From IMG/VR virus record IMGVR_UViG_2698536435_000010: a stretch of DNA of 4,832 bases, one strand, 5' to 3'. A program made the translations under genes and the position numbers. Source of the DNA: a virus. Taxonomy: Duplodnaviria; Heunggongvirae; Uroviricota; Caudoviricetes. Shown in pieces: positions 2,560 through 4,047 of this stretch (within the stretch, counting starts at the first letter, position 1; each line of letters starts with the position of its first letter). The notes under the pieces were generated by a model. It had not been told where the DNA came from. It did not search any database and saw only the letters and a program-made list of their open reading frames with translations.

Positions 2560-3016
2560 ATCGGCTGCACTGGCTAAATTACTACCGCCTTACAACATGA
2601 CCGTCACCGCAGTTGCGCAGATGGAAGGGATATCGGAAGCTACCCTTTATTACTGGCGTAACAAGGCGAAAGCAGAGGGAATACCGGTGCCGGGTGCAAA
2701 CAAAACTACAGACCAATGGTCAGCCGAAGCCCGGCTGGCTGTGATTATCGAAACAGCTACACTCAGCGAAACAGAACTCGCGCAATACTGCCGTAAAAAA
2801 GGGCTTTACCTGGAACAGATTAGTCAGTGGAAACAAGGCTTTTTGCAGGTGTCTTCGCCCACTGACAAAGCGGCGCTCAAACAAAGCCAGAAAGAAGTTA
2901 AACAACTAAAACGCGAACTGCTTCGTAAGGAAAAGGCGCTGGCGGAGGCGGCAGCGATACTGGTGCTGCGAAAGCAGTTGCGGGATTTTTACGGGGAAAC
3001 CGACGAGGACGACTGA
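2513..3016 (+). CDS. IS3-family transposase OrfA (HTH DNA-binding plus leucine-zipper-like region); start codon uncertain
   Basis: HTH-like segment TVTAVAQMEGISEATLYYWRNK and C-terminal heptad Leu region LKQSQKEVKQLKRELLRKEKALAEAAAILVL, as in IS3-family OrfA. The track start at 2489 is a TTG inside the inverted repeat; ATG 2513 is the first plausible start, ATG 2597 an alternative. Stop TGA 3014-3016. Confidence 0.75.
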   Translation: MTRWEQIVKRISPERKSAALAKLLPPYNMTVTAVAQMEGISEATLYYWRNKAKAEGIPVPGANKTTDQWSAEARLAVIIETATLSETELAQYCRKKGLYLEQISQWKQGFLQVSSPTDKAALKQSQKEVKQLKRELLRKEKALAEAAAILVLRKQLRDFYGETDEDD

Positions 3017-3051
3017 CGCCCGGAACAGAGCGGCAGGCACTTATCGGTTAC

Positions 3052-4047
3052 GTGCGGGACGCGATGGCGTCAGGAGCTCGGCTGTCAATAGCGCTGACGG
3101 AAGCGGGATTAAGTGAACGGACGTGGCGACGCTGGCAAACGTCGTGGGAAGACAAGCGTGTCAGCACGGTCAGGCCCTCCCCGGTGAACCAGTTAAGTGA
3201 GCAAGAAGAGCAACAGATACTGGCAGTGTGCCATCAGCCAGACTACGCCAGCCTCCCCCCGTCACAAATCGTACCGGCGTTGGCGGATAAGGGGATTTAT
3301 CTGGCAAGCGAGTCAACCTTTTACCGGGTACTGCGTCGTCATGGAGAGGTGCATCGTCGGGGACGGCAACGGGCAGCGCAGAAAGTCACCCCGGCTACGA
3401 GTTGGCAGGCCAGCGGGCCGAATGAGGTGTGGACATGGGACATTACATGGGTTCCGTCAACCGTAAAGGGGCGCTGGTTTTACCTGTATCTGGTGGAAGA
3501 CCTCTACAGCCGAAAAATCGTGGGATATGAAGTGCATGAAACTGAAAGTGGTGAGCAGGCGGCAGCCCTGATACAACGCACGGTCCTTCGGGAAGGATGC
3601 TGGCAAAACCCGCCGGTACTGCATGCGGACAACGGCGCGGCGATGAAGTCACAGACGTTGCAAATGAAGCTACACGAGCTGGCGATAACCCCCTCTCACA
3701 GCCGGCCGGGAGTGAGTAACGATAATGCGTATGTGGAGTCGCTGTTCCGGACACTGAAATATGTCCCGCAGTGGCCGTCATCAGGGTTCGGCAAGCTGGA
3801 GGAGGCGCGTGAATGGATAGAGGTTTTTGCTCAGTGGTATAACGAAATGCACAGACATAGCGGCATCAGGTATGTGACGCCGGGTCAGCGACATCGTGGA
3901 GAAGACGGTGTGTTGCTGAAAAATCGGGATGAGGTGTACAAAAAGGCAAAAGCGGAACGGCCTGAACGCTGGTCTGGCAGAACACGAAACTGGCATCCGG
4001 TAGGCAAGGTAATGCTGAATCCAGAACGGGAAAAACAGGCAGCCTAA
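3052..4047 (+). CDS. IS3-family transposase OrfB (DDE / rve-like catalytic domain), in the -1 frame relative to orfA
   Basis: DDE triad candidates in WTWDITWVP, HADNGAAMKS and SNDNAYVESLFRTLK with family-typical spacing (about 56 and 36 residues). The frame is open upstream from 2929, overlapping orfA by 88 nt. The called start is GTG 3052; ATG 3064 also possible. Confidence 0.85.
   Translation: MRDAMASGARLSIALTEAGLSERTWRRWQTSWEDKRVSTVRPSPVNQLSEQEEQQILAVCHQPDYASLPPSQIVPALADKGIYLASESTFYRVLRRHGEVHRRGRQRAAQKVTPATSWQASGPNEVWTWDITWVPSTVKGRWFYLYLVEDLYSRKIVGYEVHETESGEQAAALIQRTVLREGCWQNPPVLHADNGAAMKSQTLQMKLHELAITPSHSRPGVSNDNAYVESLFRTLKYVPQWPSSGFGKLEEAREWIEVFAQWYNEMHRHSGIRYVTPGQRHRGEDGVLLKNRDEVYKKAKAERPERWSGRTRNWHPVGKVMLNPEREKQAA

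Follow-up and report, generated by a model that had tools for sequence, protein, structure and literature searches.

Insertion sequences of the IS3/IS911/IS150 type encode an HTH protein in orfA and a DDE catalytic domain in orfB, which lies in the −1 frame, and produce a fusion transposase at a signal that combines the heptamer A_AAA_AAG with a downstream stem-loop or pseudoknot. The terminal inverted repeats of the IS3 family end 5'-TG...CA-3'. Shorter signals of the form Z_ZZN have also been described. Sharma et al. 2014 (PMC4066793) assayed all 16 tetramers in E. coli reporters and obtained a mean of 0.147% when no stimulator was present, which is barely above the 0.112% of non-shifty controls. 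With the IS3 pseudoknot, A_AAG, which is the most shift-prone tetramer in E. coli, gave 5.6%, U_UUC 1.78% and U_UUU 0.80% (PMC4066793), the last value falling to 0.14% without the pseudoknot (PMC4066793 Table S2). Tetramer-only signals, mostly A_AAG and U_UU[U/C], were found in 87 of 490 IS1/IS3 elements, and it was proposed that weak motifs may serve to hold transposase low, as in IS1, which is cited as a case where a motif of low efficiency operates whether or not stimulators flank it (PMC4066793).

The element described here lies in a 4,832-nt stretch of viral DNA, which is referred to below as the window. It shares with the IS3/IS911/IS150 type the HTH domain of orfA, the DDE domain of orfB in the −1 frame, the fusion transposase and a homologous slip site, but its signal has only the tetramer A_AAG, and no downstream stem-loop was found. 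As in the Z_ZZN systems, shift-prone tetramers lie in phase where orfA overlaps the open −1 frame (A_AAG at 2971-2974 and U_UUU at 2986-2989); the reporters, however, needed a strong pseudoknot to reach 0.8-5.6% (PMC4066793), and no such stimulator is evident in the window. IS1 likely follows the same logic as the window's element, in which a weak signal leads to scarce transposase, but it belongs to a different family and keeps the full heptamer A_AAA_AAC. Tetramer-based −1 frameshift signals are already a known category, and the window's element is an ordinary example of it.

Extent and surroundings of the insertion sequence

The window contains an ordinary IS3-family insertion sequence with an intact orfA and an intact orfB frame, and this element sits inside the tape-measure gene of a prophage (Table 1). 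Copies that are 99.8-100% identical to it are present in six E. coli genomes, one Shigella sonnei plasmid and two Klebsiella plasmids, and their flanks differ each time. An empty site was found in E. coli 47-1826 (L113), in which the uninterrupted prophage tape-measure gene reads ...GGATGTATTAGC... and has one GTAT only. The short (3-4 bp) target-site duplication that is a trait of the IS3 family is present at the window's element and at other copies, where it is ATGG/ATGG, ATTA/ATTA or TAT/TAT. No target duplication is present at the copy on Shigella sonnei plasmid p866 (L002), where the left flank is TAT and the right flank CAC. A Tn7-like tnsE gene is adjacent, and the mismatch points to a subsequent deletion or rearrangement at the border of this copy.

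The true ends of the element, as set by the flanks of the copies and by the empty site, lie 7 nt outside both inverted-repeat cores. The 22-nt TG...CA inverted repeat is present, yet it is internal to the ends by this distance, and an end that lies 7 nt beyond the TG...CA repeat is unusual for the IS3 family. The outer 7 nt (CCCCCTC at 2471-2477 and CTTACCG at 4077-4083) are not complementary to each other.

The name given by NCBI to the window's element is the generic 'IS3 family transposase' only, and identical copies are labelled 'IS3 family transposase' and 'programmed frameshift'. The closest named relatives are the ISSpu6-family and ISPsy31-family transposases, the fused proteins of which (P0036 and P0065) are 58% and 53% identical over the full length, respectively, and have the same domain order, but both are too distant to be the same element as the window's.

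Table 1. Coordinates of the features of the insertion sequence and of its frameshift region in the window
Feature	Position	Strand	Remarks
IS3-family insertion sequence, 1613 bp	2471..4083	+	99.8-100% match to differently flanked E. coli, Shigella and Klebsiella copies
Target-site duplication GTAT, left copy	2467..2470	.	single GTAT in empty site L113
Target-site duplication GTAT, right copy	4084..4087	.	single GTAT in empty site L113
Left inverted-repeat core TGTCAGGATAGTTGTCACCCCC	2478..2499	+	22 nt, 86% complementary to 4055-4076
Right inverted-repeat core …CCTTGACA	4055..4076	+	pairs with the 2478-2499 core; 7 nt inside the element end
orfA, 160 aa, HTH_Tnp_1 DNA-binding protein with a coiled-coil-like KALAEAAAILVLRK segment at its end	2534..3016	+	PF01527, E 2e-15
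A6G run	2795..2801	+	out of phase (CGT AAA AAA GGG); −1 frame ends at TAG 2821-23
orfB reading frame, −1 relative to orfA, rve/DDE catalytic domain	2929..4047	+	PF00665, 2.8e-18; PF13683, 1.5e-14
In-phase A_AAG, rejected	2932..2935	+	relatives have GAG AAA or GAA AAA
Local hairpin GCUGC-GAAA-GCAGU enclosing A_AAG	2965..2978	+	2960-2985 fold −9.8 kcal/mol, z −2.6
A_AAG tetramer, proposed main −1 slip site, heptamer remnant	2971..2974	+	in phase; invariant in 10/10 clade sequences
U5 run, possible secondary slip site	2986..2990	+	U_UUU 2986-89 in phase; predicted ..LRKQLRDF/LRGN.., 504 aa
Predicted long-range hairpin CUGACGCC / GGCGUCAG	3013..3072	+	one clear helix, 3013-20 with 3065-72

The element splits the tape-measure gene into two halves (1912-2470 and 4084-4790), the right one of which is 99.4% identical to an intact E. 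coli prophage gene, and the prophage that carries this split gene is probably defective. Two further mobile elements border the region. The end of an IS1 element occupies positions 1-58 of the window, with 96-100% identity to IS1 copies recorded for phages and plasmids. At the other side, the tape-measure gene breaks off at ~4790, and the last 44 nt (4789-4832) correspond to the terminus of IS630 as it occurs in 766 E. coli genomes. Together with the IS3-family element, these ends amount to three different insertion sequences within a 4.8-kb prophage region.

Reading frames and the predicted OrfAB fusion

The GTG at 2534 was adopted as the start of orfA, being the CDS start in the NCBI records of identical copies and matching the MKRISPERK start of relatives (the ORF listing gives TTG 2489); the stop is TGA 3014-3016. 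A check of the reading frames confirmed the preliminary description of this locus in that the −1 frame, past TAA 2926-2928, runs open from 2929 to 4047 and overlaps orfA up to 3016. Both layout traits of the IS3 family are thus found, namely overlapping ORFs with orfB in the −1 frame, and an HTH OrfA combined with a DDE OrfB. The conceptual OrfAB fusion scored 228.7 bits against the NCBIfam model NF033516 (transpos_IS3), for which the cut-off is 160.

From 2929 until GTG 3052, the orfB frame is without a start codon. The −1-frame stretch RRGRLT..ER upstream of 3052 varies little or not at all among 34 relatives (50-94% identity), and two residues of the fusion that are read in the −1 frame, G159 (nt 3007-3009) and R167 (nt 3031-3033), are invariant in 34 diverse relatives. 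Given that no start codon precedes these conserved residues, they are reachable by frameshifting only, and the earlier proposal that a −1 frameshift joins orfA to orfB is supported by them as well as by the NCBI label. The same stretch makes it highly improbable that OrfB is translated alone from GTG 3052 or ATG 3064 and that no fusion is needed. The GTG at 3052 does open a 331-aa ORF, but no good SD lies ahead of it and the HTH_Tnp_1 domain would be missing from the product.

Candidate slip sites in the overlap

No in-phase X_XXY_YYZ heptamer occurs anywhere in orfA, in agreement with the preliminary description. The A6G run was considered as a slip site and rejected, as it is not in phase and a stop downstream of it closes the −1 frame; the preliminary description had likewise judged this run unable to make the fusion, although the coordinates it gave (2786-2792, with the stop TAG at 2812-2814) were 9 nt too low. 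It had also pointed to TTTTT at 2986-2990, where U_UUU 2986-2989 is indeed in phase and the slip product ..LRKQLRDF/LRGNRRGRLT is exactly that of the NCBI product P0121. Its view of U5 as the sole frame-coincident slip site did not hold, because two in-phase A_AAG tetramers, at 2932-2935 and 2971-2974, are also located in the overlap. Moreover, in-phase Z_ZZN tetramers number 10 in the 160 codons of orfA, and the occurrence of one U_UUU in the 29-codon overlap is therefore no more than expected by chance. The tetramer at 2932-2935 was rejected as a slip site, since the −1 frame upstream of 2971 is unconserved in the family and contains a stop in L005.

Thousands of fused IS3-family transposases matched in a protein search, and the DNA of ~110 related loci was collected from genome, metagenome and viral collections and by individual look-ups. 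When these loci were anchored on the conserved KALAEAAA codons, 69 distinct sequences were obtained for the codons that correspond to window 2969-2977. The site is A_AAA_AAG in 41/69 and A_AAA_AAA in 18/69 of these distinct relatives, and in 10/69 it is CGA AAG CRG, which contains A_AAG only; the last group, from Dickeya, Pectobacterium and metagenomes, clusters with the window in a single clade, its nucleotide identity to the window being 74-95%. The comparison with relatives that had been recommended earlier hence places the frameshift heptamer of the family at window 2971-2977, and, given that the heptamer is aligned there in 59/69 sequences, CGA AAG CAG in the window corresponds to the canonical CGA AAA AAG with two substitutions. 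The preliminary description had considered that a heptamer present in homologues and mutated here would imply a decayed transposase. Such homologues do exist, at amino acid identities of 78% or less, but the implied decay is contradicted by the intact ORFs and the mobile copies. Clustering of changes at the old heptamer was examined as a trace of selection and dismissed, since 5/12 nt differ there against ~29% overall divergence from the A6G sisters, which is unremarkable.

Among the relatives that lack the heptamer, A_AAG is kept in 10/10 sequences and U_UUU in 3/10. The U5 run (GAT TTT TAC) is found in the window, L083 and L099, as well as in the identical copies, and GAY TAY TAY is present instead in L084, L085, L086, L098, L103, L114 and L115. 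Since L114 and L115 are 95% identical to the window and yet have no U5, the run is recent; a single A-to-T change in GAT TAT TAC would be enough to create it, with a conservative replacement in either frame (Y to F and L to F). Two clade copies on metagenome contigs, L103 and L106, diverge from L098 ~20 nt past the orfA stop into unrelated T-rich sequence and appear to be truncated elements without orfB.

The codon phase of variable sites within the clade provides a further indication of where the −1 frame is entered. Each of the five variable sites in 2929-2970 is a third position of orfA and alters the −1 frame. The two that follow, 2976 and 2982, fall on second positions of orfA (Q/R) and on third positions of the −1 frame (Ala, synonymous). 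This switch in phase brackets 2971-2974 and is located upstream of U5 (hand-computed Fisher exact p ~0.05, seven sites), as would be expected if entry into the −1 frame took place immediately after 2974. With seven sites and two post-switch substitutions, the pattern is suggestive of entry at 2971-2974.

From these comparisons, OrfAB (504 aa) would, on balance, be made by −1 frameshifting on A_AAG at 2971-2974, a remnant of A_AAA_AAG. The single E. coli lysyl-tRNA (anticodon UUU) would decode AAG at 2972-2974 and re-pair one base back, on AAA at 2971-2973; reading in the orfB frame would then proceed through GCA GTT GCG GGA TTT TTA and create the junction ..ILVLRK/AVAGFLRGN.. in a predicted product ..ILVLRK/AVAGFLRGNRRGRLT.. 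of 504 aa. Among the points against A_AAG, the P-site codon CGA cannot re-pair on GCG, and the U5-bearing sublineage is the most widespread, its exact protein P0121 being found on 494 contigs, which would fit a contribution of U5.

It is rather unlikely, in our estimate, that U_UUU at 2986-2989 is instead the main slip site, with tRNA-Phe moving from UUU 2987-2989 to UUU 2986-2988 and the junction placed at ..LRKQLRDF/LRGN... The tetramer is in phase, tRNA-Phe would re-pair perfectly, and partial re-pairing of the P-site codon GAU on GGA would be possible, unlike that of CGA on GCG at the A_AAG site; U_UUU also belongs to the three tetramers that are most common in IS1/IS3 elements (PMC4066793), and the wide spread of its carriers speaks in its favor. 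However, it is missing from seven of the ten clade sequences, which have intact ORFs, and its origin requires only the single conservative substitution noted above. With a pseudoknot, its frameshifting is lower than that of A_AAG by ~7-fold, and without one it does not exceed background (PMC4066793); no structure is located 5-9 nt downstream of it, and synonymous changes in the −1 frame already occur upstream of it. The RDF/LRGN junction of the NCBI product P0121 would seem to favor U_UUU, but near-identical copies (P0001, P0124 and others) are joined at RG/FLRGN, so that RDF/L and RG/FL coexist for practically the same DNA. Heptamer-bearing relatives are likewise joined by NCBI at varying points; such junctions come from the annotation pipeline and say nothing about where the slip occurs.

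The use of both tetramers to produce two OrfAB isoforms, which would differ in four residues (AVAG or QLRD), with U5 as a recent gain that partly offsets the loss of the heptamer, is unlikely. Both motifs are in phase and shift-prone and both would give 504-aa products, and the heptamer had already been lost when U5 appeared within the clade, the carriers of U5 now being the most abundant. This abundance, however, may just reflect plasmid carriage; no sign of selection on U5 was found, and each tetramer is expected to be near background without a stimulator (PMC4066793). With A_AAG as the proposed main site, the lineage-specific U_UUU at 2986-2989 may be a minor second route.

Candidate stimulators, expected efficiency and persistence of the element

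Folds of 2975-3080, 2991-3080, 2925-3140 and 2975-3030 were no better than those of shuffled sequences (z of −0.39, −1.42, −0.45 and −1.1, respectively), and no conserved structure starting 5-9 nt after 2974, or 5-9 nt after U5, was found in them. RNAalifold analysis of the clade, of the sisters and of both together revealed no conserved helix at a useful distance, and an Rfam search gave no match. The stimulatory fold that the preliminary description had envisaged in the GC-rich stretch after U5 found no support either, being no more stable than shuffles, with predicted helices that are not kept in relatives.

Three local candidates were also inspected. The long-range hairpin at 3013-3072 was rejected as a stimulator; it begins 39 nt after A_AAG and 23 nt after U5, and its pairing is lost in L085, L086 and L098. 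The SD-like GGAGG at 2944-2948, the only strong match of this kind, was rejected because it is too far upstream (22 nt from A_AAG and 37 nt from U5); synonymous diversity shows a mild dip there (0.19-0.29 vs 0.25-0.5 elsewhere). The third is the GAAA-tetraloop hairpin that encloses A_AAG: 4/200 shuffles were as stable as 2960-2985, and the pairing is kept in L086 via a U-A to U-G change. The A6G sisters, e.g., L091, have no equivalent of this hairpin.

Many distant relatives have a conserved 10-12-bp stem (e.g., GCGCUCUGGG...CCCAGAGCGC) that starts 5-6 nt after the heptamer and is likely a frameshift stimulator; in L006, L016, L041, L053 and others, it often encloses an inner GAGG...CCUC hairpin. 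This stem is missing from the whole enterobacterial subgroup, from the A6G sisters and the A_AAG clade alike. In a family-wide fold survey, a helix of at least 8 bp within 9 nt of the site was predicted in 0/10 clade sequences vs at least 26/59 heptamer-bearing relatives. Given the loss of both the heptamer and the stem-loop, the signal appears to be doubly weakened, and low efficiency is expected. We infer that frameshifting in this element is probably rare, well under a few percent, which would keep transposase low as in IS1.

A doubly weakened signal could in principle be a dead one, such that no transposase is made and the copies are either relics or the result of mobilization in trans by a heptamer-bearing relative. 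The absence of both heptamer and stem-loop is compatible with this, as are the near-background values of lone tetramers in reporters (PMC4066793), but the state of the element makes it very unlikely. Judged from its copies, the element is still mobile: copies with 99.8-100% identity occupy at least five sites, and four of them, including that in the window, have 3-4-bp target duplications, L002 being without one. Furthermore, every full-length clade member, across 74-95% nucleotide identity, has an intact orfA and an intact orfB, and the differences in the overlap are mostly synonymous. A trans-mobilizing helper in E. coli was sought and rejected, in that blastn of 5,426 E. coli genomes found only copies of at least 99% identity and no diverged relative. 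A decayed transposase and independent initiation of OrfB are both unlikely.

The losses can also be arranged as a series of decay followed by repair, in which the stem-loop was lost first, in the enterobacterial subgroup, the heptamer was then reduced to A_AAG in the clade, and an A-to-T change finally created U_UUU 15 nt downstream. U5 would then be an adaptive compensation that yields two isoforms, and the U5 sublineage may since have spread through E. coli, Shigella, Klebsiella, Pectobacterium and Dickeya; alternatively, an unrecognized stimulator, e.g., the GAAA-loop hairpin, would sustain the signal. We regard this scenario as quite doubtful.

As for frameshifting on A_AAG, its importance extends little beyond annotation, and no open question is made newly testable by the frameshift site of the window. 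For a widespread enterobacterial IS3-family element, the junction of the fusion would likely be placed at K/AVAGF, with which neither NCBI junction agrees. The element is a tidy natural example of an insertion sequence that is still mobile with neither a heptamer nor a stem-loop, and it agrees with the notion that a weak frameshift signal is tolerated, or favored, as a means to hold transposase low.
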